A stretch of 49,748 bases of DNA from an uncultured Chromatiales bacterium (lineage in GTDB: Bacteria; Pseudomonadota; Gammaproteobacteria; RBG-16-57-12), in assembly GCA_964557295.1 (NCBI GenBank), contig CAZKZP010000001.1, forward strand, positions 43,798-93,545, in the 5' to 3' direction. A program made the position numbers and the translations under genes. Below the pieces are notes generated by a model that was not told the origin of the DNA, searched no databases, and was given only the letters and a program-made list of their open reading frames with translations. Position 1 is the stretch's first letter, and the number at the start of each line of letters is the position of its first letter. Shown one piece after another: positions 4,890-42,731 of the stretch.

Positions 4890-8734
<3,845 letters not shown>

Positions 8735-13252: not shown

Positions 13253-14794
13253 GTGACTGAGGAAACCGAGGACAAAAAACTTCGCAGCTTTCGACAGCAA
13301 CTGATGCTGCTTGTCAGTATCGGTCTGTTGACAATGGCGATCGCCTCCTCGTTGAGCACCGCATATGTGACTGCCTGGAATCTCCGCGGCCAAATGATCG
13401 GTGAGGGGCTGCAAGTAACGGAGTCGCTGGCGCGGCAATCGGTGCTGGCGCTGTTGTATGACAGCGGCGACAACGCGGAGGATGCCGTGCGAGCGGCGAT
13501 GGGGTTCCCGGAGATCGAAAACGTCATGATCGTTGCGGCGGATCATCGGGTGTTGCTGAAAAAGGGTAAAAACTCTCTAGAATGGGAAGCCGAGAATTGG
13601 AGCGGCCGGACCCCCGCCATCGTGCGAGAAACTCTTAATCACTGGTATTTTATCGCCCCGGTTTATGCGGAAACACAACTGCTTTCCGAAGAGAGCAAGA
13701 TGTTCCTGCAGAACCAGCCCGAACATGAAGTACTGGGATACGTCATGGTCGGCAAACGGAAAAGCGGCTTGCACAGGGTGCAGTCCTACACCGTGCTGAA
13801 TAATCTCGGAATCACCATTGTGAGCTCGGTGCTATTGCTCTTGGTCCTGCGCCGATCATTCAGTCGCTTGACGCGCCCGTTGAACGATCTATCCGAGGTC
13901 ATGGGGCGCGCTGAAGAGGGAAAAGAGGCCTACGCCAAACTTGAAGGACCGAAGGAAGTCTTGCGTATCGCGGCGGCGTTCAACAAGATGAAGGCGGCCT
14001 TGGATGAGCGCGATCAGCAGCTGCGGCAGCATAACGTGGTGCTGGAACATCAAGTCGCGCAGCGCACCCAGGAGTTGTCATACGCGCTAGAGATGGCCGT
14101 GCAGGCGAACCGAAATAAGTCATATTTTTTATCAAGCGTCAGTCACGAGCTGCGCACCCCGCTGCAATCGATCATCGGCTATAGCGATCTTATTTTGGAC
14201 GGCCTGACAGACGGCGATGACCAGATCCGGCATGATCTCGAAACCATTCTGAGAAACGCAACCAACCTGTTGAACATGATCAATTCGATTCTCGATATGG
14301 CGAAAATCGAATCGGGAAATATGGACGTTTCCTTAAGCATGGTGAATCTACAGAATGTGGCCACTCAAGCGATAGAGACCATCAAGCCGTTGATGACGGA
14401 GAACGGTAATCAGTTGGAGACCCATCTGGTGATCGATCAACGGCAGATCTTGACAGATGAGGCCAAGGTCCGTCAGATCATGCTGAACCTGATCAGCAAT
14501 GCGACAAAATTCACTCATAAAGGTACGATCCGATTCGAGGTCGCCACGACCGGAAAAGGTGTCGAGATGATTGTGGCCGATACCGGGATCGGTATGAACG
14601 AGGAGCAACTGACGCGTATTTTCGAGCCGTTTTATCAAGCAGAAGGCGGGCTTACCCGGCGCTTTCAAGGCACTGGGCTTGGGTTGGCGATCAGCAAACA
14701 GTTCGCGCAGGCGCTGGGCGGGGATATCTGGGTAGAGAGCAAGCTTGGGGTGGGCACTCAGTTTTATGTTTCGATACCCTATGCCAAAGCCTGA
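13253..14794 (+). CDS. Membrane sensor histidine kinase (TM-periplasmic-TM-HAMP-HisKA-HATPase)
   Basis: H box FLSSVSHELRTPL, N box NLISNATKFT, DTGIGM, GTGLGLAIS. Confidence 0.93.
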   Translation: MTEETEDKKLRSFRQQLMLLVSIGLLTMAIASSLSTAYVTAWNLRGQMIGEGLQVTESLARQSVLALLYDSGDNAEDAVRAAMGFPEIENVMIVAADHRVLLKKGKNSLEWEAENWSGRTPAIVRETLNHWYFIAPVYAETQLLSEESKMFLQNQPEHEVLGYVMVGKRKSGLHRVQSYTVLNNLGITIVSSVLLLLVLRRSFSRLTRPLNDLSEVMGRAEEGKEAYAKLEGPKEVLRIAAAFNKMKAALDERDQQLRQHNVVLEHQVAQRTQELSYALEMAVQANRNKSYFLSSVSHELRTPLQSIIGYSDLILDGLTDGDDQIRHDLETILRNATNLLNMINSILDMAKIESGNMDVSLSMVNLQNVATQAIETIKPLMTENGNQLETHLVIDQRQILTDEAKVRQIMLNLISNATKFTHKGTIRFEVATTGKGVEMIVADTGIGMNEEQLTRIFEPFYQAEGGLTRRFQGTGLGLAISKQFAQALGGDIWVESKLGVGTQFYVSIPYAKA

Positions 14795-28161: not shown

Positions 28162-28791
28162 ATGAATAAAACGCTCGTCGCGGGTGTCCTGATGGCCTCC
28201 GGCATGATTCAGCAAAGCGTATGTGCCGCGGCAGATACGATGTATGCCGGGCTTTTTTTCGGACAGAGCACCACCGATGCGCAGGATCTGCGCGGGGTGA
28301 TCAATGACGGCTCCTTTCCCGGGGGGATCAGCACCGACACCAGCGATGTTGCACTCGGTGTGTATTTCGGCGCCAAAATGGTGCCCGCGCTGGCCGTGGA
28401 ATTCGGGTATCAGAATCTCGGCAGCTTTACGGCCACTGGCACCTCCACTGGTTCCGGGGTGTTTCCCAGCGGCGCCGTCGATGGCGAGATCGATGCCAGC
28501 GTCTTCAGCGCCTCGCTCCTGGGCATGTACCACCCGCGCGAGGAATTCGGCCTCTATGGCAGGCTCGGCGGCTACCGGGCGACGACCGATGCCAGCCGTA
28601 CCGTCTTGAGCGCGGATACCAGCAATTTCGGCATGATACTCGGGTTGGGTGGCCAATTCAGCATCGCCCACGATATGTTCGTGCGTCTCGAATGGACCAT
28701 GTACCAGGATCTGGAATTCATCACCCCGTCCGATACCACCGCCGAACTGACGGTGGAGACGATCGGCGCGAGTCTCGCCTTGACCTTCTGA
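28162..28791 (+). CDS. OmpA-like outer membrane beta-barrel protein
   Basis: Signal peptide, AVEFGYQNLG, LYGRLGG, alternating strands, C-terminal Phe. Confidence 0.75.
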   Translation: MNKTLVAGVLMASGMIQQSVCAAADTMYAGLFFGQSTTDAQDLRGVINDGSFPGGISTDTSDVALGVYFGAKMVPALAVEFGYQNLGSFTATGTSTGSGVFPSGAVDGEIDASVFSASLLGMYHPREEFGLYGRLGGYRATTDASRTVLSADTSNFGMILGLGGQFSIAHDMFVRLEWTMYQDLEFITPSDTTAELTVETIGASLALTF

Positions 28792-28879
28792 TCGCCAACG
28801 GACAAGTAGGGGCTCATTCACCTCGCGGCTCGCGGCATTGCCGCGTCCGACGTGGGAAGCTATCAACAATTATTTTTTC

Positions 28880-28987
28880 GTCATTCCGGCGCATGCCGGA
28901 TAAGTGGTGCATGGATGCACCGTTCACAAAGCCAAGGCTGTAATCCAGCTAGCTGTAGAATGCTAAACATTCAATTCTGGATTCCGG
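28880..28987. repeat. Degenerate REP-like inverted pair (GTCATTCCGGC...GCCGGAATCCAG type), interrupted
   Basis: Removing 28901-28942 restores CCGGAATCCAG, the exact reverse complement of CTGGATTCCGG at 28977-28987. Confidence 0.6.
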
Positions 28988-29086
28988 TTCCCTCCTTTCA
29001 GCGCAGTCTATCCCTCCCGTGAACTCGTAGTAGTCACACACCTCCCGCATTGGCCAATAACGCGGCTAACAGCCTGACGATGATCA

Positions 29087-29119
29087 GTAGGTTGGCACTG
29101 AGCGCAACGAAGCCCAACA
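29087..29119 (+). repeat. GTAG-class REP-like hairpin
   Basis: GTAGGTTGGCACTGAGCGCAACGAAGCCCAACA: a GTAG tetranucleotide followed by a GTTGG...CCAAC stem. Confidence 0.45.
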
Positions 29120-29183
29120 TTTATGCAGTGATCCTGGAAACGGTAGTTGACCGCTTCATTGAAGGTTGAACGTCATGATCCTG

Positions 29184-29426
29184 GTTATTAACCCGGCGAC
29201 AAAATAGATCTGGTGTACTGTTCCCTCTCCCCCAGGGAGAGGGCTAGGGTGAGGGGGATTAACACATTAATTTACCCCCTCATCCTCGGCAACCGCTCCA
29301 TGCGTTGCCCTACCTCCTGCATCCGTGCAGTCGTGTCCTTCTACCCTAAAGGGCATAAATCCCGGAGGGAGAAGGGACGCTTTTTTAAGACGCGTGGCAG
29401 ATATATTTAATCGCTGGGTTAATACC
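29184..29426 (+). repeat. MITE-like element, family B copy 1 (boxC-like CCCTCTCCC/GGGAGAGGG hairpins)
   Basis: Terminal inverted repeats TATTAACCCGGCGA...TCGCTGGGTTAATA. Aligns end to end with the reverse complement of 44847-45018 apart from two insertions. Confidence 0.85.
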
Positions 29427-29636
29427 TTAGTCATGAAGTCTGCGATCACCATCACCGTCCTGGTGACGCCGCTATGGGGCGGAGAGCCTGCGCCGCAAAA
29501 ACCGCACACTCCGTCTCATTCAACTGCCGATTCCAGGATGATTGGTTTTGTTTTGACGAGCAGCAACACATCAGAACTGGTTAGTCGCATTATCTGAGAA
29601 CAGGATCGGCAGAAAACATCAGGAAAGGGATGAAAG

Positions 29637-30677
29637 ATGTTGAACAGAAAACTCACGCCCATGAGCCGGGTGCGCGACGATGAGGTGGGATATATCCAGA
29701 TGCCATTTCCAGCGCAAGCGGCCGTGAAAACTGCAAGGCACGCAGGCATCGCGTGGATCATTGGACTGAATGATTGGTGGCTACATTGTGTCCATGATCA
29801 AGTGCCGCGAAATTGGGATTTCGAGCAACGCGCCTGGGACCAACTACTCAAACTGGTCGATCAAGGCGAGCTGGTGCTGCTGGACCGTGACACCACTTCC
29901 AGGATGCATCGCCCCGCCTGCCGGCAAGTGGAAGGAAAGTGGGTGTTCGATGATGGCCTATACTGGCGCTCGCACTTCAGGTGGCATCTGGAAGGGCGCC
30001 TGCAACGATTAGAAATCGAACGCCTCTATCGCGAACGCTGGGAGCAACAACGGGCTGTTTCGGCGAGTGGCCCCGATGGGCTGCCCACCGAGCCGGCCGT
30101 GATCAAGCCCGCGACGCTGGGGCCGCATGTGGGGTGCGAGGATACTTCAGGCGCTCTTACAAGGCCCGCGCCGCAGATGCCAATGCAAGCTACCATGAAG
30201 CTCAGTGAGGAAGTGCCGGGTACAGCTCAGTCTTGGAAAGGAAAGCTGAGGGGAGAAGAGGTTGAGCTTGACGGAGTGTCCACAAAGCGGCTCGAATATT
30301 CAAAACGTTCATCAGAGGAACTGGCAAAACTTAGGAGAGAGTTCAACTCAGGTGCACGCTCTGGATTCCTTAAGGATCTAGCCAGCGATCCGGTGAAAGT
30401 AGGCAAACTTAAAGAAGCTGGGTTGAGCGATTCAGACCTTGCGCTGATGCGCGCTGGTAAGGTGCCCGAGGGGGATTGGCAAGTTCATCATAAGCTACCG
30501 CTCGATGATGGCGGTACCAACGCGATGGAAAATCTTGTTTTGATCAAGAATGACCCATATCACATGGCTGTTACGAATGCCCAGTCTGAGCTCGCGAGAG
30601 GGTTGCAATCTGGTCAGACAAAGATGATGGATTTTCCTGTGATCTCGGGATTTGTCTATCCGCCAACCCTGATATAG
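29637..30677 (+). CDS. Polymorphic toxin 1: unknown N-terminal domain plus HNH nuclease tip
   Basis: aa 1-166 closely match the N-terminus of 32906..33928. The C-terminus WQVHHKLPLDDGGTNAMENLVLIKNDPYH is an HNH motif. Confidence 0.85.
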   Translation: MLNRKLTPMSRVRDDEVGYIQMPFPAQAAVKTARHAGIAWIIGLNDWWLHCVHDQVPRNWDFEQRAWDQLLKLVDQGELVLLDRDTTSRMHRPACRQVEGKWVFDDGLYWRSHFRWHLEGRLQRLEIERLYRERWEQQRAVSASGPDGLPTEPAVIKPATLGPHVGCEDTSGALTRPAPQMPMQATMKLSEEVPGTAQSWKGKLRGEEVELDGVSTKRLEYSKRSSEELAKLRREFNSGARSGFLKDLASDPVKVGKLKEAGLSDSDLALMRAGKVPEGDWQVHHKLPLDDGGTNAMENLVLIKNDPYHMAVTNAQSELARGLQSGQTKMMDFPVISGFVYPPTLI

Positions 30678-30698
30678 TTCGACTCAAAAGGATCCTTT

Positions 30699-31148
30699 AT
30701 GTATCAACAACTCTTGGAAAAGGTGGCAACTGAGAAACTGCAATTCGGCCGGGCCATGCAACCGCCCGCCTCTGAGGCAGAAATCGAAGCATTAGTTCTC
30801 AAGTCACGCACGCGACTTGGGGCAGAATTGCCGGCTGACTATTTGGATTTTTTAAGGCGAACTAATGGCTATAGTTGGAATGGATTAGGTATTTTCGCAA
30901 CGCATGAAATGCAAATTGTTGGCTCCACCGATAAGTTTGTGCATGATTTCACCGAAATGAACTTATATTATCGAGATAACTCGGATTACAAAAATCGTTT
31001 GGTCTTTGGTGACGGCAACATGGATGTTTATGTATATGAGATTGCTGATAAACAGTATGCGATTGTTGATCGAGTTCCTGGCAATGTTATTGAAAGATTA
31101 TCCTCATTTGATGAGTTGATTTCCAGAGCGATTGAGGATCATTTGTGA
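30699..31148 (+). CDS. SMI1/KNR4 (SUKH, YrhA-like) immunity protein
   Basis: PPASEAEIEAL, LPADYLDFLRRTNG, LVFGD, SSFDELI. Directly after the HNH toxin. Confidence 0.87.
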   Translation: MYQQLLEKVATEKLQFGRAMQPPASEAEIEALVLKSRTRLGAELPADYLDFLRRTNGYSWNGLGIFATHEMQIVGSTDKFVHDFTEMNLYYRDNSDYKNRLVFGDGNMDVYVYEIADKQYAIVDRVPGNVIERLSSFDELISRAIEDHL

Positions 31149-31288
31149 TCAACAGATGATGCTTGGCCTTTCATAGCATGCGTTGCATGAATTAAGTAGC
31201 AAGTATTAGAGGCGACTGAGGTAGAATTGTTGATATTTCGATTCTGTCTGATGGTTTTTGAGCTAATTCTATCCAAAGGATTTATCAC

Positions 31289-32113
31289 ATGAATATTAGA
31301 TTGCGTTTTACCTCGCTGTTCAGTGGACATCGCTGGCAGGCATTCATCTTTGTGTTATCGCTGAGTACGCTACACGGCTGTGGCGGCGGTGGTGGAGATA
31401 ATGTCACCAACGCCAACCCGAATGGGTATTACAGCAATGCCGGGAGTGCGGATGTGAAGATGGGGGACAATGTGAATCCACGCCCCATCACGGATTTGCA
31501 GGGCATGATCCACGATGGTCAATTCGTGATGCTCAGCGAATCGGAGCAGTTGGCCTATCACGGCACGATCACGGTGAGAGGGAATTCATTCACAGGCTCT
31601 GTCATCGTTTATGAAGACGGAACTGGCGATCCAACGCCGGTGCCGGTTAGTGGCACGATCAATGCGGATAAATCCATTGATGGCACATTGAGCGGGGCGG
31701 GCGCGGGTAACGGGGCGTTCGCGTTGAAATACTCAGACGAGAATGTTGTTGCGGTAGATAATGCGAATTTATTTGTGAAAAGCCCGTGGTGGGCATATGT
31801 GAGGGATAGCAATTTCTTTAAACTATCTGTAGATAATATCGTGAATCAGCAAGATGCGAATCTTGGCAATCTATCTCAACCATTAGGCACTATTTTTAAT
31901 GAATGTAATATTTTAGGGCGTATCGATCCCGTGGCGACACATGTATATTCCGTCTCGGTGGTGTTGAGCAATTGCACGAATTCTAGTGTGCTAGTTAATC
32001 CAAACTATAGTGGTTTAGCCACGTTGCGTACTGAGAATTCAACGACACCCAATGACCGCTTTGTGATCAGTCTTTCCAATGGCGCGTATAGCATCAATGG
32101 GGAATTCCAATAG
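31289..32113 (+). CDS. Lipoprotein of unknown function, copy 1
   Basis: Lipobox LHGC then GGGGG linker, beta-rich body. Paralog at 34745..35566. Confidence 0.78.
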   Translation: MNIRLRFTSLFSGHRWQAFIFVLSLSTLHGCGGGGGDNVTNANPNGYYSNAGSADVKMGDNVNPRPITDLQGMIHDGQFVMLSESEQLAYHGTITVRGNSFTGSVIVYEDGTGDPTPVPVSGTINADKSIDGTLSGAGAGNGAFALKYSDENVVAVDNANLFVKSPWWAYVRDSNFFKLSVDNIVNQQDANLGNLSQPLGTIFNECNILGRIDPVATHVYSVSVVLSNCTNSSVLVNPNYSGLATLRTENSTTPNDRFVISLSNGAYSINGEFQ

Positions 32114-32251
32114 CTTGCACAAGGAGCGAAGGGGGCAGTGTAGTACTCACCCACCCAAATCCTTCCGGTGGGAAAGGGCACAGACGCTTGGTTTATTTTG
32201 ATCTCGTGTGAATCATAGACTGGCCTGGCGAAGTGGGAACATCATTTTCGA

Positions 32252-32881
32252 ATGGAGAAAAATATGGCGCGGTTGCAAAACTTTAGAATGCGCACACTCA
32301 GTGCGCTTGTTCATGTCGTCGGTTGTTCGTTGTTTCTGCTGAACATCCCGATAGTGAACGCCGCGCCATCGGGTGGGGCCGTGGTGGGTGGCGCTGGGTC
32401 GATCGGTCAATCGGGGGCAACGACTACGATCAATCAGTCCAGCCAACACATGGCGATCGATTGGCAGAGTTACAACGTCGGCCGTGATGAGCGCGTTCAG
32501 TACATCCAACCCAATGCATCCTCCATTTCACTTAATCGCATCCTCAGCAATCAAGGTTCCACCATCGCCGGCCGCATCGATGCTAACGGCCAGGTGATCC
32601 TGGTCAATCCGAATGGCGTTTTCTTCACGCCCACATCTGTTCTGAACGTGGGCGGGCTTATTGCTTCCGGATTGGATATCCGCCCCGATGACTTCCTGAA
32701 CGGCCATTATATCTTCAGTGAAATGCTGGGCGCTGATGGGGCTGTGGTGAACAGCGGTCTCATCAATGCCTCACTCGGGGGTAATGTGGCGCTCATCGGT
32801 CGTCATGTTGAAAACAACGGCGTGATCGCTGCACATCTTGGCAGCGTGAATCTCGCGGCAAGTCGCGAACCCCTCGTGTAA
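32252..32881 (+). pseudogene. Truncated copy of the filamentous haemagglutinin-family gene (signal peptide plus TPS domain only)
   Basis: Near-identical to the first ~203 codons of 35703..42731 (IDWQSYNV, LVNPNG). Similarity stops at about 32859, 6 codons before TAA. Confidence 0.75.
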
Positions 32882-32905
32882 CCAAAACACAATCAAGGAT
32901 CGATC

Positions 32906-33928
32906 ATGCACAGAGAGCTCAAACCCATGCGCAGTGTGCGCGAGGAAGAATTGGGATATATCCAGATGCCATTCTTTGCGCGGATGGAGGTGGAGAGCGC
33001 AAGACGCGGGGGCATGGCGTGGATCATTGGCCTGAATGACTGGTGGCTGCATTGTGTCCATGATCAAGGGCCGAGAAATTGGGATTTCGAGCAACGCGCC
33101 TGGGACCAACTACTCGCACTGGTCGATCAAGGCGAGCTGGTGCTGCTGGACCGCGACACCACTTCCCGGATGCGTCGCCCCGCCTGTCGGCAAGTGGAAG
33201 GAAAGTGGGTGCTTGATGATGGCCTATACTGGCACTCGCACTTCAGGTGGCATCTGGAAGGACGCCTGCAACGATTAGAAGTCGAGCGCATCGATCGCGA
33301 ACGCTGGGCGCAACAACGGGCCGCCACTGCAAGTGGTCCCGAGGGGCTGCCCACCGAATTGGCCGTGATCAAGCCCGCGACGCTGGGGCCGCATGTGGGG
33401 CGCGAGAATCCCGCGTGCGTCATGCCGCAGAAGAAGGTGCCGTGCTTCGAACTCAATGGACTTCCGCACGAGTGCATCCCTGAGTTCGACCGCCAGATCT
33501 CGGGTCAGCAAACCGGCCTCAATGATTTGACTGTGGAGGAATATCTTAATGGGCGCGAGGCGTTTAAGGCGGGGGAGGTAAAACGCAGTTCGAAGGCGGC
33601 GAGGGATGCGCGGGAGAATTACCGCGGCAAACTTACCAAGGAAATGGTTGATGAATTTGTTGAGCAAGGACTGCCACGTAGCACTGCCAAGATCAAGGCC
33701 GCCGAAATAGCTGCTGAAAAGATGAAAACTCTTGCCGCACTGCACAATCCTGACATGGTCGCCGCCGGAAAGGATGAAATCTGTGACTTCGGCGACCGCA
33801 ACATCAATTCGCGCCTCGGTGCGCAATGGAAGAGCCGTGTTGGCGAGCTAGACAAAGCGGCGAGCAATGTGCCTGAATCTGCACGCGCCCAGACCAAAAT
33901 GAATGCACAACTCGAACGATGCAGGTGA
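32906..33928 (+). CDS. Polymorphic toxin 2: same N-terminal domain plus Ntox15 (Tde-like DNase) tip
   Basis: EFDRQISGQQTGLNDLTVEEYL, LAALHNPDMVAAG (HxxD), GDRNINSRLGAQW. Confidence 0.87.
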   Translation: MHRELKPMRSVREEELGYIQMPFFARMEVESARRGGMAWIIGLNDWWLHCVHDQGPRNWDFEQRAWDQLLALVDQGELVLLDRDTTSRMRRPACRQVEGKWVLDDGLYWHSHFRWHLEGRLQRLEVERIDRERWAQQRAATASGPEGLPTELAVIKPATLGPHVGRENPACVMPQKKVPCFELNGLPHECIPEFDRQISGQQTGLNDLTVEEYLNGREAFKAGEVKRSSKAARDARENYRGKLTKEMVDEFVEQGLPRSTAKIKAAEIAAEKMKTLAALHNPDMVAAGKDEICDFGDRNINSRLGAQWKSRVGELDKAASNVPESARAQTKMNAQLERCR

Positions 33929-33931
33929 GAA

Positions 33932-34570
33932 ATGACAATGGATGAAAACTTTGCAGGTTTCCTAGAAGACTTCGGCCCGGCGATTGACAAACGTTCCGTG
34001 CCGCCCTCGATCATAGAACACTATCGGGGAAAATTGCCCGATCAATTGCTTTTCTATTGGGAGGAGTATGGCTGGTGCGGGTATGCCGATGGTCTCTTTT
34101 GGACAGTCAATCCGCAGGAGTACGAACCAGTGTTGGAGGCGTGGATCGGTGAAACGTCGTTTATGGAGGAAGATGCCTACTACGTTATCGCAAGAAGCGC
34201 GTTTGGTGATGTCTACTTGTTTGGAGGGCAATCAGGTAGAAAACTGCATATCATAGCTCCAGATGCTCGCATGATGCCGCCACGTAAACCGAAAACTACT
34301 GATTTGAATCTCAGTATTCGGGCATTCTTCGGATCACAGAGCCGCGAAGCGTGTGATTTTTCTGATATAAACGGATCACCCCTCTTCACCCCCGCCCTAA
34401 ACACCCTCGGCCGCCTCAAGCACGACGAGATGTACGGCTTCGTGCCCGCGCTGGCGCTGGGTGGTCCGGCGACCTTGAAGCATCTGCACAAGGTCAAGGC
34501 GGTGGAGCACCTTGTGCTGCTGGCGCAGTTGTCGCCGCTGCGGGTGATGACTTCTCCACCTATAGAGTGA
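33932..34570 (+). CDS. GAD-like/DUF1851 (Tdi-type) immunity protein
   Basis: YRGKLPDQLLFYWEEYGW, GLFWTVNP, IARSAFGD, DEMYGFVPALALGG. Confidence 0.9.
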   Translation: MTMDENFAGFLEDFGPAIDKRSVPPSIIEHYRGKLPDQLLFYWEEYGWCGYADGLFWTVNPQEYEPVLEAWIGETSFMEEDAYYVIARSAFGDVYLFGGQSGRKLHIIAPDARMMPPRKPKTTDLNLSIRAFFGSQSREACDFSDINGSPLFTPALNTLGRLKHDEMYGFVPALALGGPATLKHLHKVKAVEHLVLLAQLSPLRVMTSPPIE

Positions 34571-34744
34571 GCATTCGGCGTGAAGTACATCACAGTTTTG
34601 CGGGTCTGTGACAAGGCGGATAGCAGACTGTCCGCGCACGTAAATATCGCTACTGTTTGTCGAGGTCTTGGGTAAAATAAGCCGAATCGAACGCAGGCAG
34701 CATTCAACAGAAATCACATCATCAACATCACAAGGATTCATAAT

Positions 34745-35566
34745 ATGAACATATCACGCTTCACCTCAATGTACGGCCGACGTGGCTGGACGGCATTTAT
34801 CTTTGTGTTATCGCTGAGTACGCTACAGGGCTGTGGCGGCGGGGGTGGAGATAATGTCACCAACGCCAACCCGAATGGGTATTACAGCAATGCCGGGAGT
34901 GCGGATGTGAAGGCGGCGGACAATATGAATCCACGCCCCATCACGGATTTGCAGGGCATGATCCACGATGGTCAGTTTGTGATGCTCAGCGAATCGGCGC
35001 AGTTGGCCTATCACGGCACGATCACGGTGAGAGGGAATACATTTACCGGCTCTGTCATCGTTTATGAAGACGGAACTGGCGATCCAGCGCCGGTACCGAT
35101 CAGTGGCACGATCAATGCGGATAAATCCATTGATGGCACATTGAGCGGGGCGGGTGCGGGGAATGGGACGTTCGCGTTGAAGTATTCGGACGAGAATGTT
35201 GTTGCGGTTGATAATGGAAATTTGTTTGTAAAAAGCCCGTGGTGGGAATATGTAAGGGATTATAACTTCTTCAAGCTGTCTATAGCTGATGTCATCAATC
35301 CACAAAGCACGAATTTCAGCAATCAATCGCAACCTTTAGGCTCTGTTTTTAACGAATGCAGGATTTCAGGCCGCATCGATCCCGTAGCCACGCATGTGTA
35401 TTCTGTCTCGGTGGTCATGAGCAATTGCACGAATTCTAGCGTGCTAGTTAACCCCAACTATAGTGGTTTGGCCACCTTGCGCACGGAAAATTCAATGACT
35501 CCCAATGACCGCTTTGTGATCAGTCTTTCCAATGGTGCGTATAGCATCAATGGGGAATTCAAATAG
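34745..35566 (+). CDS. Lipoprotein of unknown function, copy 2
   Basis: Lipobox LQGC then GGGGG. Paralog of 31289..32113. Confidence 0.78.
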   Translation: MNISRFTSMYGRRGWTAFIFVLSLSTLQGCGGGGGDNVTNANPNGYYSNAGSADVKAADNMNPRPITDLQGMIHDGQFVMLSESAQLAYHGTITVRGNTFTGSVIVYEDGTGDPAPVPISGTINADKSIDGTLSGAGAGNGTFALKYSDENVVAVDNGNLFVKSPWWEYVRDYNFFKLSIADVINPQSTNFSNQSQPLGSVFNECRISGRIDPVATHVYSVSVVMSNCTNSSVLVNPNYSGLATLRTENSMTPNDRFVISLSNGAYSINGEFK

Positions 35567-35702
35567 ATTCCACAGAAGCGAAGGGGTGGTGTAGCACTCC
35601 CCCACCCAAATCCTTCCGGTGGGAAAGGGCGCAGACGCTTGGTTCATTTTAATCCCGTGTGAATCATAGGATGGCCTGGCGAAGCAGGAACATCATTATC
35701 GA

Positions 35703-38700
35703 ATGGAGAAAAATATGGCGCGGTTGCAAAACTTCAGAATGCGCACAATCAGTGCGCTTGTTCATGTTGCCGGTTGTTCGTTGTTCCTGCTGAATATCCC
35801 GATAGTGCACGCCGCGCCATCGGGTGGCGCCGTGGTGGGGGGCGCTGGGTCGATCGATCAATCGGGGGTAACGACTACGATCAATCAGGCCAGCCAACAC
35901 ATGGCGATCGATTGGCAAAGCTACAATGTCAATGCGAATGAACGTGTGCACTACATCCAACCCAATGCATCATCCATTTCACTCAATCGTATTCTGAGCA
36001 ATCAGGGCTCCACCATCGCCGGTCGAATCGATGCTAACGGACAGGTGATCTTGGTCAATCCGAACGGCATCTTATTTACTCCCACTTCCGTCCTCAATGT
36101 CGGTGGCCTCATTGCTTCCGGGTTAGATATCCGCCCCGATGACTTTCTGAACGGTCATTACATCTTCAATGAGGTATTAGGAACTGATGGTGGTGTCGCT
36201 AACAGCGGGCTCATCACAGCCTCACTCGGTGGCAATGTTGCTTTGTTAGGTCGACATGTCGAAAACAACGGTGTCATTGTCGCCAACCTTGGCACGGTGA
36301 ATCTTGCGGCGGGCAAGGAAACAGTGTTGACCTTTGATAACGAAGGTTTGTTGGGTGTTCGTGTTACTAAAGAAATCCTGCAAAGTGAGCTGGGCGTTGA
36401 CCCCGCTGTGGCCAATAGTGGTCAGATTCAAGCGCATGGCGGACGGGTGCTGCTGACAGCCAGTGCCAGCCAGGATGTGTTCTCGCGTGCGGTTAATACT
36501 GATGGACTTCACGAGGCTACCAGCGTGGTGGTGCATGAGGATGGCAGTTTCACGTTGGGTGATGGGGCTGATGTTATCAACAGTGGCACCATCAATACGT
36601 CCGCTACATCGAGCAATTCAACAATTGGCCGAATTGTTTTGATCGGCGAAAACGTGACCAGCAGCGGCACTCTAAAGGCCGATGCCGTCAGTGGCAACGG
36701 AGGCGAGATCGAATTGCATGCAAAAGACACCACTTTACTCACAAACGATAGCATGACCTCTGCGCGCTCCGAATCCAATGGTAATGGCGGCACCATCAAG
36801 GTATTGGGTGATAAGGTTGGCTTGCTCGACCAAGCCAGCGTGGATGCGTCGGGCGCCACTGGCGGTGGTCAAGTGTTGATTGGTGGCGATCAAGAAGGGA
36901 AGAATCCATTGGTGCGAAACGCCAATTTCATCTATCTCGCCGAGCAAAGTCAGATCGATGCGGGTGCAATTGATTATGGCGAGGGTGGGAAGATCATCGC
37001 GTTTGCAGAAGATACCGCACGCATTTTCGGCAATCTCTCTGCGCGTGGCGGCAGGAATGGCGGTAACGGTGGATTCATCGAAACATCAGGGCTGAGGAAT
37101 TTTGAAATTACCTCGGTGCCCGATGTTTCTGCTATAGCAGGCAATGGAGGCACTTGGCTGATCGATCCCTATGATTTGACCATCTCTAATGTCGATGATG
37201 TGACAGGATGCGTGAATGTAAATTATTCGGCAAGCGGATGCCGTGGGGGTTCACCGCCCGTATATTTATCAAGTCCATTTTCTTCAACGGGCGCCGGCGC
37301 CGTATTGGACAGCGATTTGATTGTCAGGGCCTTAAGGAGCAGTAACGTCAAGATCGTTACTGGTGATGGGGCTGGAAGCGGTGATATTACACTCACTAGT
37401 AGCGCCGATATTGACTATAACGGTGTTGGCGCTGGGGACAGGACGTTAATCTTGGAGGCGGCGCGCAATATAGACTTTCAGTCTGGAAGTAGTGTTTATG
37501 ATGGCGAGTCATCATCGGTTGACAAACTCAACGTCGTGCTCCTGGCCGGTGCCGGTGGGGCGGTAACGCTGCAAGCTGGCGCCAGCATCACCACTCAAGG
37601 CGGTAATTTCTATGTCGGTTATGACGGCACCACTGTCAAACCCGTGACCAGTTTCACCAATAATGGCACGGTGAAGAGTGCGGGAGCGTTTGATCAAGCG
37701 GGCGGCGATGTACGCATCGAGGCCAGTGGCGCGGTCACGTCCACCAGCTTGGATGCCCATGGCGGAAGCACGGGCGATTCGGGGAATGGTGCGACTGACC
37801 GCGCCGGTAAGGCGGGCGGTGATGTCATGATCAACGCGGGCAGTGTCACTGTGAGCGGTTTGATCGATACGAGCGGCAGCGCAGGCACCTACGATGCGAA
37901 CAAGGATGGCAACAATGGGCAAGACGGCGGTAATGGCGGCTTGGTCGATATCACCACCTCCTCGGGTAACATCGCGGTTGGGGCAATCCAAACCACAGGG
38001 GGTGCGGCGGCGGGCGATTATACGGGAGGTACTGTTGATACGGGCAACGGCGGTGACGCCGGTAGCATCCGATTGACAGTGAGCGGTCCATCGACCATCA
38101 CGTTGCATGGTGATTTGACCGCCACCGGTGCGCTCGGCTATATCAGTGGCACCACTGGCAGCCATGGTTCGGGCGGCAGTATTGCTTTAGATGGCAACAC
38201 CGTACTGGCATCGTCAGTGACGCTGGATGCCTCGGGTGCAACGGATACCGTCGTTGCTATTCCGACATCGGGGGATGTTGCATTCAGTGGCGACCTCAAC
38301 GCCACCAGCGCAGGGGCTCAAAATATCGAGATCAAAGGCCGCGATGTGGCGTTACATGCGATTGGCAACAACAGACCGCTCGGGGCTCTGACTGTCAACG
38401 CCATCCGCAGTATCGCTCTATCGGGTAATGTCGCCACAAGCGGTGCTGTGAGTATGAATTTCGGAAGCGCAAGTGGTGGCACCTTTACTGTCGATCCGGA
38501 TTTGTCATTTACAACGGTGGGGGGAATGACCGTCACCGGCGGTGCGCATGACGATACCTTCAATGTCTACTCGCTCTTCACCGGCACCGTGAATGGCGGG
38601 GGCGGCACGGACACACTCACAGGTCCGGATGGTTCCTCGCATGACTGGTCCATCACCAGCGCAGGCGGCGGGACACTGGATACGCGTCTGACCTTTGCTG

Positions 38701-41700: not shown

Positions 41701-42731
41701 CCGCGGGCTCCACGGTGAGGGCGGACACCGTGGTACTCGAGGGTGTCGGCGAATTTGGCACCACCCTGGACGCCATCGACACCGCCATCACCACGCTCGA
41801 CCTGCGCAACGCCGGCCCGGTGTATATCAGTGAATCCGCCGGGTTGAATCTTCGCACGACCGGTAACGTGACCAACACGGGCGCTTTTGTCATCAAAGGC
41901 GCCACCGCGATCGATGCGGGCGGTGGCAGTTTGAGGCTCGACAATGCCGCCAATGATTTCGACATGGTATACGTGAACAATGCGGCAGCGATTGAGCTGC
42001 GCGACGCCAACGATATTAAAGGTGGCGATATGACGGCGGGCAGCATCACCCTGCAAGCGGCGAGCGGGGTGGGTACCACCGCCGTTCCACTAAAGACGCA
42101 CACCGCGAAACTCACCATCACCAATAACTCGAATGGCGTTTACGTGGCGAATGATCAGGCGATGACCGTCAGCATAGTCAACAAGGGCGACATCGAAGTG
42201 CAGAACGCCGGCAATCTCACCGTCGAAAAATTGTTTGCCAACGGTGGTGACTATTCCTCAAACGCATTTGCCGGCGGCTCAGGCGTCGTTACCCTGAACG
42301 TGTCTGGCGGCGGTGCCGTGACGGCGAGCGGCAGCCACAGTGCCGCAGAGGCGCCCGATATCATCGGCACGTCCCTGCTGGTAATGAACGCACCCTTTGG
42401 CACAACCGGGCGGCGGATGAGCATCATGGTGCCGCAAACGTTCGGGTACTATGGTCCGCGCGGTCGCGGCTACGTTTATTACTATGGCGTTGAGCCTGAT
42501 GTCGTTGTCGGTAAAGAAAATCTGGCGGTATCCCCTGATCTGCTCGGCCTCTCCAATCAGCAACTGGTCGGGGTGGAAGCGCTGGCGAATCTCGATCCGG
42601 CGGTTTTCACGGAAATACGGAATTATTATTACGAAGACGTTGCCATCCGGTTACCTGACGATCAACGGTATGACTATGATGATGAAGAGGAAGAGGAACG
42701 CAAAAGACGCAAGGAAGCCATCGAGCAATAA
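35703..42731 (+). CDS. Large filamentous haemagglutinin-family (TpsA-like) exoprotein/adhesin, 2342 aa
   Basis: Signal peptide, TPS domain with NPNG, GGFIETSG and GTWLIDP motifs, Gly/Thr-rich repeats, acidic C-terminal tail. Confidence 0.88.
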   Translation: MEKNMARLQNFRMRTISALVHVAGCSLFLLNIPIVHAAPSGGAVVGGAGSIDQSGVTTTINQASQHMAIDWQSYNVNANERVHYIQPNASSISLNRILSNQGSTIAGRIDANGQVILVNPNGILFTPTSVLNVGGLIASGLDIRPDDFLNGHYIFNEVLGTDGGVANSGLITASLGGNVALLGRHVENNGVIVANLGTVNLAAGKETVLTFDNEGLLGVRVTKEILQSELGVDPAVANSGQIQAHGGRVLLTASASQDVFSRAVNTDGLHEATSVVVHEDGSFTLGDGADVINSGTINTSATSSNSTIGRIVLIGENVTSSGTLKADAVSGNGGEIELHAKDTTLLTNDSMTSARSESNGNGGTIKVLGDKVGLLDQASVDASGATGGGQVLIGGDQEGKNPLVRNANFIYLAEQSQIDAGAIDYGEGGKIIAFAEDTARIFGNLSARGGRNGGNGGFIETSGLRNFEITSVPDVSAIAGNGGTWLIDPYDLTISNVDDVTGCVNVNYSASGCRGGSPPVYLSSPFSSTGAGAVLDSDLIVRALRSSNVKIVTGDGAGSGDITLTSSADIDYNGVGAGDRTLILEAARNIDFQSGSSVYDGESSSVDKLNVVLLAGAGGAVTLQAGASITTQGGNFYVGYDGTTVKPVTSFTNNGTVKSAGAFDQAGGDVRIEASGAVTSTSLDAHGGSTGDSGNGATDRAGKAGGDVMINAGSVTVSGLIDTSGSAGTYDANKDGNNGQDGGNGGLVDITTSSGNIAVGAIQTTGGAAAGDYTGGTVDTGNGGDAGSIRLTVSGPSTITLHGDLTATGALGYISGTTGSHGSGGSIALDGNTVLASSVTLDASGATDTVVAIPTSGDVAFSGDLNATSAGAQNIEIKGRDVALHAIGNNRPLGALTVNAIRSIALSGNVATSGAVSMNFGSASGGTFTVDPDLSFTTVGGMTVTGGAHDDTFNVYSLFTGTVNGGGGTDTLTGPDGSSHDWSITSAGGGTLDTRLTFAGMESLTGGAGDDTFAFALGGSISGTVSGGVGNNRLIGRDAGNTWNIAASNTGVVSAGSGNYVSFTGIQNLTGGNGSDTFNFTQPSSAITGTIDGGVAGGTNSLSLAGRNGTHTFTLSGVGAGDVRGTGATSADIVNQFSNIQSLLGGSGVDTLIAPDAAVTWTIDAAKGGRIETNLGFAAMEHLIGALTHDDTFNFSVAPATANVTVDGGGQATVDTVSFAGVGGAVSFTLGTAGFANIEHFAGNTTDSTLIGEDNANTWEITAAKAGNVGGITFTGFTTLMGGTANDEYTFRVTPAVAAMTIDAGTGVDRVDLSTVTDPVSVQLGATGFSNIEYLTGNDGAINTLTGDNTANTWTLTGAHAGTVSGVNFTGFTTLIGALNQNDTFNFMVHPDVAAVTLDGRGQTGSGVGDAVSFAALTGQAVNVQLGTASISNIERYTGNNTNSTLTGGDGANTWTLTGVNDGTINSITFVDFNHLTGGNGIDSFTINGGGLTGLLNGGGGGDTLTLPTAVATTVKVVNTPPATVDNPANTVTVYQFETLTGNSNRAHTLVGPDSGTTWSINGVNSGNISFGTTVYFTGFANLSGGAADDMFTLTSSSTPELVTGMLSGGGHATGDKLTLAGMTGAAAGAAVRLSTLATDDAIDITEVEQIAGNNNSTLRAADSANTWMINDANDGTITSTAGTVSFSDMRTLQGGSDDDTFQVSFNGAMTAAIDGGGQRSADIADYSGQPSVMLNVGSNAFSGITGLEGVRGNGTNSTLKGPTPSAGTAAVTWTVDGLNRGKVSYDDNTQTLAFEGFNYLAGGNGMDAFVINGGALENIMNGVPGMISGGAGTNSLSINLAGTGVFSGGINYIGGTATDAITVNNHSAHRYLATYSPAVDFTDLNNTANAGPFEQLSYRYTDADAGIDQKFELNYRHAEAVTSEQLVDTLTVLGVDNNSAPETLTLRAGGFEVGGSSPVTFANVSNITLDGRGGADAIALDNPSVTGTLRLTAEAVTDTAGSTVRADTVVLEGVGEFGTTLDAIDTAITTLDLRNAGPVYISESAGLNLRTTGNVTNTGAFVIKGATAIDAGGGSLRLDNAANDFDMVYVNNAAAIELRDANDIKGGDMTAGSITLQAASGVGTTAVPLKTHTAKLTITNNSNGVYVANDQAMTVSIVNKGDIEVQNAGNLTVEKLFANGGDYSSNAFAGGSGVVTLNVSGGGAVTASGSHSAAEAPDIIGTSLLVMNAPFGTTGRRMSIMVPQTFGYYGPRGRGYVYYYGVEPDVVVGKENLAVSPDLLGLSNQQLVGVEALANLDPAVFTEIRNYYYEDVAIRLPDDQRYDYDDEEEEERKRRKEAIEQ
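38560..41200 (+). repeat. Intragenic ~95-100 aa repeats in the exoprotein (ANTWxI...G...F.G...LxGG..DxF)
   Basis: GCCAACACCTGG-type anchors near 39468, 39753, 40056 and 40695. The first three are about 285-303 bp apart. Bounds approximate. Confidence 0.65.

Follow-up and report, generated by a model that had tools for sequence, protein, structure and literature searches.

A rare family of putative polymorphic toxins with a common switch-point motif and exchangeable tips in an uncultured Chromatiales bacterium and its relatives

N-terminal delivery domains are the main handle on the "orphan" effectors of contractile injection machines, and few of them are known (MIX, FIX, RIX, PIX and WHIX). 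Another arrangement is that of contact-dependent growth inhibition (CDI; CdiB/CdiA-CT/CdiI) and of the tpsA/tpsC cassettes of Neisseria, in which arrays of two-partner secretion (TPS) exoproteins show a sharp junction before the tip (VENN) and truncated tpsA pieces. In Agrobacterium, the Tde1/Tdi1 pair of the secretion system of type VI (T6SS) joins an Ntox15 DNase to a GAD-like/DUF1851 immunity protein, and MafB of Neisseria carries a signal peptide and the N-terminal domain DUF1020. Here we describe a locus in a stretch of 49,748 nucleotides (hereafter the window) from an uncultured Chromatiales bacterium (assembly GCA_964557295.1, contig CAZKZP010000001.1, positions 43,798 to 93,545; genome G000), in which two genes, ORF1 and ORF2, encode putative toxins with a common N-terminal domain (N-domain A, defining family A), a common junction and different tips. 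The overall architecture is that of a polymorphic toxin system, with its nearest counterparts among the orphan T6SS effectors that PIX, MIX, FIX, RIX and WHIX define. In the available sections of its report, PIX is presented as a 140-aa N-terminal delivery domain of polymorphic T6SS cargo effectors (10.1101/2023.07.16.549128, PMC12135965); as in the PIX-type classes described there, a short N-domain with no signal peptide stands on orphan effectors with diverse C-terminal toxins and immunity genes, the distribution is restricted to certain lineages, and some of the domains also head Rhs proteins. ORF1 and ORF2 lack the signal peptide and DUF1020 of MafB, and the lipoprotein here belongs to no known family. 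In its conserved N-domain, immunity gene, lipoprotein gene and extra cassettes the locus does resemble the MafB/MafA/MafI loci of Neisseria (PMC4287609).

The first 166 residues of ORF1 and 165 of ORF2 are 81% identical, with one gap, in keeping with the common N-terminus of about 165 residues that a first-pass annotation of this DNA had pointed out. When the whole proteins are compared by BLASTP (E 7e-104) the likeness is gone after ...IKPATLGPHVG, and the blastn alignment ends at 30143 and 33409, where the same annotation had placed an abrupt end of DNA similarity (about 30140 and 33406). A profile search with the two N-domains, covering 1,835,955,588 representative proteins, matched 18 proteins, of which 17 begin within the first 7 residues and have lengths of 167-388 aa. 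One candidate, P0018 (E 7.2e-4), matched over two short stretches of a signal-peptide protein and was taken as unrelated, and further members (P0020-22 and P0136-142) came from additional searches. About 25 metagenomic members lie on contigs of up to 3.7 kb, and the NCBI-derived P0140 on one of 12.4 kb. N-domain A was found in three of 61 genomes of relatives and in two of 400 genomes sampled from the class, and all carriers are uncultured metagenome-assembled genomes (MAGs) of groundwater type. A pattern search based on a 9-protein sub-alignment gave no relative among genome contigs (222 stretches) or metagenome contigs (596 stretches), a word-based search with residues 1-166 of ORF1 returned the window's own two proteins only, and most of the 232 matches of a full-length alignment search fell on the HNH tip and not on the N-domain. 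The domain had been called Trp-rich, a description that suits the ORF1 and ORF2 copies (9 W in 166 aa) and does not extend to the family, since W102 alone is invariant across 23 relatives.

The expectation that homologues would carry varied tips behind the same junction was borne out, with at least seven Pfam-named types on N-domain A: HNH, Ntox15, DUF4329 and Aspzincin_M35 in our scans, PF15644 and PF05990 in precomputed labels, and Ntox46, assigned by 76% identity to a tip scoring 4.3e-18. Ten homologue tips were scanned, giving DUF4329 twice, HNH once, Aspzincin_M35 once, a sub-threshold C39 once and no family in five cases. The tips of P0006 and P0017 are 72% identical, and their N-domains only 27.5%. 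Family A is a real, rare and modular family of putative polymorphic toxins, and it is tiny.

The junction reads GPGNRxATLGPHxG in most relatives and IKPATLGPHVG in the window toxins, and it can be used as a search pattern. The DNA pattern for GPG[NS]Rxx[TS]LGPH, run on one genome per GTDB species (596 Gb), gave six loci, five of them in three further gammaproteobacterial MAGs (G061, G062 and G063); a match in Ramlibacter (L021) lies in no toxin-like ORF and was taken as chance. The toxins with this junction include two other N-domains, here termed families B (about 165 aa) and C (about 228 aa), which match family A only at the last 22-25 positions of its profile, and hhalign of A against C aligned 24 junction columns and nothing more. 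Related tips are nevertheless found on N-domains that have only 12-24 junction residues in common: the tips of the family-C protein L023a and the family-A protein P0015 are 76% identical over 140 aa, whereas their N-domains match over 17 junction residues only, and family-B tips are 53-68% identical to that of the family-A protein P0003. This recurrence of related tips on unrelated N-domains vindicates the sharp switch point that had been proposed at KPATLGPHVG, and the junction is a genuine module boundary. A motif common to three N-domains that are not detectably related seems to be new; a full-text search of open-access papers and bioRxiv with the junction strings brought up no relevant paper. 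Since the junction is conserved at the protein level within a disordered linker, a function beyond that of a recombination site is suggested, for example recognition or processing. As a separate observation, two proteins of G049, a genome of a different family that is 86% complete (G049:C70 and G049:C237; L007 and L089), have divergent family-A N-domains with no LGPH junction, followed by a common middle region, and one of them ends in what reads as an alpha/beta-hydrolase-like domain, resembling P0142 with its PF05990 label.

N-domain A gave nothing in Pfam (E<=0.1), NCBIfam or PADLOC and no usable match in the ESM Atlas, as the first-pass annotation had anticipated in stating that it could not be matched to a described delivery domain; the published models of MIX, FIX, RIX, PIX and WHIX lie outside these libraries. 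An AlphaFold2 model built from 23 sequences is compact and alpha/beta, with a long C-terminal helix (aa 112-143), and is confident (predicted local distance difference test, pLDDT, 85.5; predicted template modelling score, pTM, 0.72). In the full-length model of ORF1, pLDDT ranges from 81 to 94 in 10-residue blocks over aa 1-140 and falls below 50 at 148-157 and 160-189. Foldseek found no match for the N-domain in the PDB (best E 1.8), and a wide structural search with VIA-align gave a best Z of 3.9; absent fold matches of a predicted model do not establish a new fold. The claim that the toxins have no signal peptide agrees with their maximum 15-residue hydropathy over the first 70 aa, 1.09 and 0.91, compared with 2.1-2.2 for the signal peptides of the TpsA proteins. 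N-domain A itself appears to be new and is probably distinct from MIX, FIX, RIX, PIX and WHIX. It differs from the PIX-type classes in that no sequence or fold match was seen for it in the libraries compared, in its 18 matches in 1.84 billion proteins where hundreds would be expected of a PIX-like domain, and in its occurrence in two genomes with no T6SS markers. Three unrelated N-domains with one junction motif are a further difference, in that the available sections of the PIX report (10.1101/2023.07.16.549128, PMC12135965) do not describe this for those classes.

Sequence analysis of the tips agrees for the most part with what had been read from the letters. The ORF2 tip was annotated as an Ntox15/Tde DNase, and Pfam places it in Ntox15 at E 8e-30 (104.3 bits against a cut-off of 22.5), with an HNPD string that fits HxxD, presumably the catalytic motif of this family. 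The ORF1 tip was annotated as an HNH nuclease, which Pfam alone does not sustain, its 17.6 bits falling under the cut-off of 21.4. Other lines support a predicted HNH DNase: the modelled fold is similar to the DNases of colicins E7/E9 and pyocins S2/AP41 (Foldseek E 0.03-0.05, probability 0.98-1.0), identity with the P0005 and P0014 tips is 43-52%, and P0005 clears the HNH cut-off at 24.9 bits, and the ORF1 tip matches HNH tips of LXG, PAAR, PAAR-like and PT-TG toxins (E about 1e-17 to 1e-23). Each tip is followed by its usual immunity family, as had been stated, SUKH-1 after ORF1 and GAD-like/Tdi1_C after ORF2 (Table 1), and Pfam names Tdi1_C a T6SS immunity domain. The ORF2 tip and its immunity gene belong to the same Pfam families as Tde1/Tdi1, and the ORF1 tip probably has the fold of the colicin and pyocin HNH DNases; unlike in those systems, only the tips are in common, and the N-terminal two-fifths is unrelated.

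Table 1. Positions of the genes, homology blocks and motifs of the toxin array (window coordinates unless another contig is named).
Feature	Position	Strand	Description
ORF1, putative toxin, 346 aa	29637..30677	+	N-domain A, aa 1-145; disordered linker, aa 148-189, with KPATLGPHVG; predicted HNH-type DNase tip
Immunity gene 1 (putative), SUKH-1/YrhA family	30699..31148	+	SMI1_KNR4 5.6e-10 (Pfam); NF038335 2.5e-34 (NCBIfam); 21 nt past ORF1
Lipoprotein-like gene, copy 1, 274 aa	31289..32113	+	Signal peptide, then Cys and Gly run
tpsA 5' fragment, 209 aa	32252..32881	+	Signal peptide and about 2/3 of TPS domain; Pfam TPS domain at 2.5e-27 (positions 3-175 of the 252 in the profile)
Unique joint, tpsA fragment/ORF2	32860..32905	+	Stop codon of the fragment and ribosome-binding-site-like AAGGA of ORF2
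ORF2, putative toxin, 340 aa	32906..33928	+	N-domain A; same junction as ORF1; predicted Ntox15 (Tde-type) DNase tip
Immunity gene 2 (putative), GAD-like + Tdi1_C	33932..34570	+	Pfam 7.6e-39 and 1.5e-22; 3 nt past ORF2
Lipoprotein-like gene, copy 2, 273 aa	34745..35566	+	Within homology block 2
Full-length TpsA exoprotein, 2342 aa	35703..42731	+	Pfam: TPS domain only, 7e-29
DNA homology block 1	29641..30143 paired with 32907-33409		N-domain through junction; blastn 87.3% over 503 nt
DNA homology block 2	31276..32859 paired with 34732-36310		Covers lipoprotein gene, spacer and 5' end of tpsA; 86.3% identity over 1584 nt (blastn)
TpsA end motif	42250-42731; L039 (G061:C35) ~13400-13511; G338:C7 ~206319-206420		Sites in three lineages

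Family A is not restricted to small proteins. Proteins with DUF6531 and RHS repeats on G000:C26 and G001:C6 (G001 being a congener whose genome is 99% complete) start with a divergent family-A domain ending in ...RPATLGPH; the paralogue on G000:C26 has DUF6531 and seven RHS-repeat stretches, and family C likewise heads Rhs proteins in G062 and G063. As in the Rhs/PAAR toxins of T6SS, where PAAR occupies this place, N-domain A and its junction sit ahead of DUF6531 and the RHS repeats; unlike in these, ORF1 and ORF2 have no RHS repeats by Pfam and the N-domain is not PAAR by Pfam. This position, which in Rhs proteins is that of PAAR and other loading domains, argues for a trafficking module, and N-domain A is probably a delivery domain. 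The Rhs-fused paralogue, the two further N-domain families and the lipoprotein/TpsA context described below had all been overlooked by the first-pass annotation. Some side observations concern these loci. The family-A Rhs gene on G000:C26 (L018, 6089-10239, minus strand) is split into at least two frames of 934 aa and 364 aa, by a frameshift or an assembly error; its orthologue in G001 is intact (1396 aa) and has upstream an operon that, from its translations, reads as a MacB-type ATP-binding cassette (ABC) exporter. On G063:C63 (L062), an 88-aa ORF (4998-5264) shares 4 nt with the start of a family-C toxin gene; it gave no Pfam match and could be an adaptor or chaperone gene.

The two toxin genes of the window belong to an array that also contains two copies of a lipoprotein-like gene, with no family in Pfam or NCBIfam, and two tpsA genes, one of them a 5' fragment (Table 1). 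The presence of a second homology block, spanning the lipoprotein gene and the tpsA 5' end, means that the two cassettes are units of a tandem duplication. The two blocks flank a unique tip-immunity segment, and the segment replaced runs from the junction to the lipoprotein start; the array arose by tandem duplication of a toxin-immunity-lipoprotein-tpsA 5' end unit, after which the tip-immunity segment was replaced. Homology of the fragment to the full tpsA stops at 32859, and the joint that follows (32860-32905) is spanned without differences by contigs of two sequencing runs, possibly from the source sample; no other layout of the array was seen in contigs from four groundwater runs. The idea that the tpsA fragment is joined to ORF2 as one product, by read-through or a frameshift, was considered and rejected: the two are in a common frame here, but this is so in only two of five such junctions, and ORF2 has its own AAGGA and ATG.

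The full-length TpsA has no toxin tip and no LGPH, GPGNR or DPxGL string, its sole VENN lies at aa 186 inside the TPS domain, and nothing toxin-like was found downstream of the gene in the window. The array thus resembles the CDI and Neisseria cassettes in that toxin-immunity genes cluster with a TPS exoprotein gene, in a sharp junction comparable to VENN and in the truncated tpsA pieces. Unlike in CDI, each of the window toxins is an ORF in its own right, with a start of its own, placed upstream of tpsA and with no TPS domain or signal peptide, the TpsA has neither tip nor junction, no tpsB is adjacent, and the truncated pieces are 5' (TPS-domain) and not 3' toxin-encoding ones; the window toxins are not CdiA-CT. 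The idea that the N-domain was the "pretoxin" C-terminus of an ancestral TpsA was likewise rejected, as no TPS protein was found to contain it, and what closes the full-length TpsAs of G000, G061 and G338 is a conserved acidic tail with no N-domain. Independently of that idea, the tip-less TpsAs of these three lineages end alike, with IR[LM]P.DQ and then an acidic run (Table 1), which could be a conserved C-terminal functional tail.

The same neighbourhood recurs in other lineages. Junction-type toxins stand immediately upstream of (immunity-)lipoprotein-tpsA genes, in the same orientation, in G000, G001, G061, G062 and G003, and tpsA 5' fragments occur between the cassettes of G061 and G062. 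Because these fragments end at differing points in the window, G061 and G062, and share the frame of the toxin at only two of five junctions, they look like duplication or recombination scars and not like functional fusions. Homologues of the lipoprotein were found in five of the 401 class genomes searched for it, beside tpsA wherever the surroundings are visible (G000, G003, G177 and G338). The slots of these arrays also hold effectors of classical T6SS families, namely a PAAR-like-AHH effector in G061 and Tae4 and a Tse2-like ADP-ribosyltransferase in G177, where a Lipase_3 protein is present as well. In G338 (C7:160000-222030; L081, L082, L075 and L076), genes for the lipoprotein, a TpsA of 3875 aa and TpsB immediately precede hcp-vgrG in the same orientation, at the edge of a complete T6SS cluster. 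Within the cluster, the gene next after clpV encodes a 689-aa protein that is a full-length homologue (E 1e-71) of a G003 family-C toxin, one that has an SLGPH junction. The recurrence of such cassettes, and of classical T6SS effectors, within lipoprotein-tpsA arrays is new. Two further observations were made at these loci: the lipoprotein/tpsA loci G177:C90 and G177:C56 (L079 and L080) contain no junction-type toxins and have Tae4, Tse2-like and Lipase_3+DUF6795 cassettes and a tpsA 5' fragment, and in G338 an IS200-like Y1 transposase gene lies between two lipoprotein copies.

We hypothesize that the N-domain loads its cargo onto the spike of a contractile injection machine, most likely a T6SS, a reading to which we assign a probability of roughly 0.4. 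Each toxin starts with a folded N-domain (about 145 aa), continues through a long helix and a disordered linker with the junction, and ends in an exchangeable, predicted nuclease tip; the N-domain would act as a cargo-loading module that attaches the tip, or in the paralogues the whole Rhs cage, to the spike, and the adjacent immunity protein would neutralise the tip in the producer. The machine would most likely be the T6SS on contig C8 of G000, which would inject the toxin into neighbouring bacteria, and the junction would be the boundary at which recombination swaps tips and also N-domains. The N-domain has traits of such a module, namely no signal peptide and a compact, confidently predicted fold followed by a disordered linker. 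The T6SS is chosen because junction, tips and array slots are held in common, and because of the architecture of the Rhs proteins and the evidence from family C; the system on contig C8 looks complete, with Hcp, VgrG, a PAAR-like protein and DUF2169. Apart from this, two TssC paralogues (496 and 509 aa) were noted side by side at G000:C8:28518-31580, and the same pair occurs in G003, G061, G062, G063, G177 and G338.

The distribution of secretion markers shows co-occurrence with T6SS in part only, and family A is not confined to genomes with a T6SS. TssC was found in all five genomes with families B and C (G061, G062, G063, G003 and G338) and in one of the three with family A, being present in G000 and not in G001 or G049; Pvc16_N (DUF4255), which we take to be a marker of extracellular contractile injection systems (eCIS), was found in two of the five and in all three, respectively. 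The class sample gave TssC in 84 of 400 genomes and Pvc16_N in 27 of 401, tallies that each include one genome flagged as unpublished (G303 for TssC and G045 for Pvc16_N) and become 83/399 and 26/400 when these are left aside. The co-occurrence counts are suggestive only, because both weapons abound in these lineages and related genomes are not independent.

Several findings weigh against loading onto a T6SS. G001 has an intact family-A toxin and Rhs protein, yet gave no match to TssC, Hcp or VgrG, and G049 is not among the TssC-positive genomes, at 86% completeness. No family-A gene adjoins a T6SS gene at any of five loci (two in the window, G000:C26, G001:C17 and G001:C6), and the eCIS marker suits family A better, being present in every family-A genome. 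The link of families B and C to T6SS is one of association, and those genomes may be kin. The VgrGs (643-647 aa) end in a beta-helix and have no C-terminal extension of the kind that some loading domains bind; a complex prediction of the N-domain with the VgrG C-terminal part (480-643) in three copies gave a score of 0.00 and a mark of 0.32, which speaks neither for nor against binding. Secretion and toxicity, moreover, are themselves predictions drawn from the sequences.

The distribution just given is the basis of a rival that we take seriously, though we hold it less likely, namely that family A loads an eCIS of the Afp/PVC type, families B and C serve T6SS, and the common junction routes one pool of tips to either. 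Pvc16_N lies at G000:C66 (E 2.5e-29), G001:C9 and G049:C61, and since G000 and G049 belong to different families the chance of this in two independent lineages is about 0.0045 by our own arithmetic; G001 moreover has an eCIS operon (sheath, tube, gpD-like and baseplate-sized ORFs) in addition to its intact family-A proteins, and no T6SS marker, and in families B and C the pattern is reversed. Payload genes of eCIS are normally found at the end of the operon, however, and no family-A gene lies on an eCIS contig, the toxins of G000 being on C1 and C26 and the eCIS on C66. The system of G049 is only 28-49% identical to those of G000 and G001, so that no common receptor is evident, and eCIS are frequent in these lineages (six of the ten genomes with weapon loci that were checked), so that the class-wide base rate overstates the surprise. 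SUKH/Tdi1 immunity genes and Rhs fusions are typically seen with T6SS toxins that act between bacteria, and the argument is built on three genomes, two of them of one genus. Should this division of family A from families B and C be true, the same tips may be routed to different machines by a swap of the front module. The operon itself, at G000:C66:1-13423 (L099) and G001:C9:83000-112000 (L091 and L092), was observed to be 77-99% identical between the two congeners.

A broader proposal, less likely still, would combine these elements into a "plug-and-socket" system, in which at least three unrelated N-domains serve as address labels for one pool of tips, bare or in Rhs cages, with family A directed to eCIS and families B and C to T6SS, and in which lipoprotein-TpsA(-TpsB) is an undescribed weapon accessory, for example a contact adhesin.

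The arrays themselves raise the idea, which we regard as improbable, of a route linked to two-partner secretion in which the adjacent lipoprotein and TpsA (and TpsB) help to export or present the toxin as a separate polypeptide. Its appeal lies in the position of the toxins directly upstream of lipoprotein-tpsA in five genomes, in the rarity of both partners (the lipoprotein in 5/401 genomes and the junction pattern in three MAGs of the GTDB species set), in the tpsA 5' fragments within the arrays and in G001, which has toxin, lipoprotein and TpsA but not a T6SS. The toxins nevertheless have no signal peptide or TPS domain and therefore no entry to the Sec/TpsB route in its known form. The same slots hold T6SS cargo (Tae4, Tse2-like and PAAR-like effectors), family-C toxins are also found far from tpsA (G063:C63) and inside the T6SS cluster of G338, and the Rhs-fused forms are not beside tpsA; in G000 the sole match to the ShlB family (TpsB) is on contig C56, away from the window array, and the tpsA fragments are scar-like, with differing breakpoints and in frame with the toxin at 2/5 junctions. 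Whatever its role, the recurrent lipoprotein-TpsA pair beside T6SS-type cassettes links two-partner secretion with T6SS loci, an unexplained association that merits a specialist's look.

It is more improbable still that the proteins are soluble bacteriocins of the colicin/pyocin kind, freed by lysis, with the N-domains as receptor or translocation modules and the linker motif as a Tol/Ton-type import epitope. The fold of the ORF1 tip, the three alternative N-domains on the same tips and a conserved short motif in a disordered region, which parallels the Tol/TonB boxes of colicins, would all suit it, but no lysis gene turned up, the N-domain measures only some 145 aa and matched no known receptor or translocation fold, and the same N-domains are fused to Rhs cages of 1400 aa that are unfit for soluble bacteriocin import. 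Least probable of all are intracellular toxin-antitoxin or abortive-infection modules that are never exported, with the N-domain as a sensor, for although a signal peptide is lacking, toxin and antidote genes are closely coupled and immunity protein 1 weakly matches the candidate defence protein PDC-M40A (7.9e-07, PADLOC), the toxins themselves gave no PADLOC match, their tips, immunity families and Rhs fusions are those of inter-bacterial polymorphic toxins, and an array with tip replacement is typical of secreted ones.

As to its setting, the array forms an island between an OmpA-like gene and what we take, from its translation, to be rpoS on one side and DUF498 and housekeeping genes on the other, and its G+C content dips to 0.46-0.57, compared with 0.58-0.65 nearby. 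The window is present in groundwater metagenomes, with at least half of its words in five DNA runs from two studies, the top run possibly being the source sample; the run search listed no RNA sequencing runs containing it. Rfam gave nothing over 28700-36000, and promoter and terminator scans remained at the level of shuffled sequence (7 hits where 7.6 were expected, and 10 where 6.6 were). Upstream of ORF1 (29068-29635, chiefly about 29185-29380) is an element whose depth in contigs of the four groundwater runs reached 250-1059 in the 29068-29351 bin and 22-145 in the next, against roughly 1-17 in neighbouring bins. Its G-rich palindromic core, which has no Rfam match, occurs once in the window. 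Many loose contig ends fall at 29221-29379, and the element looks like a multi-copy repeat common to many organisms there.

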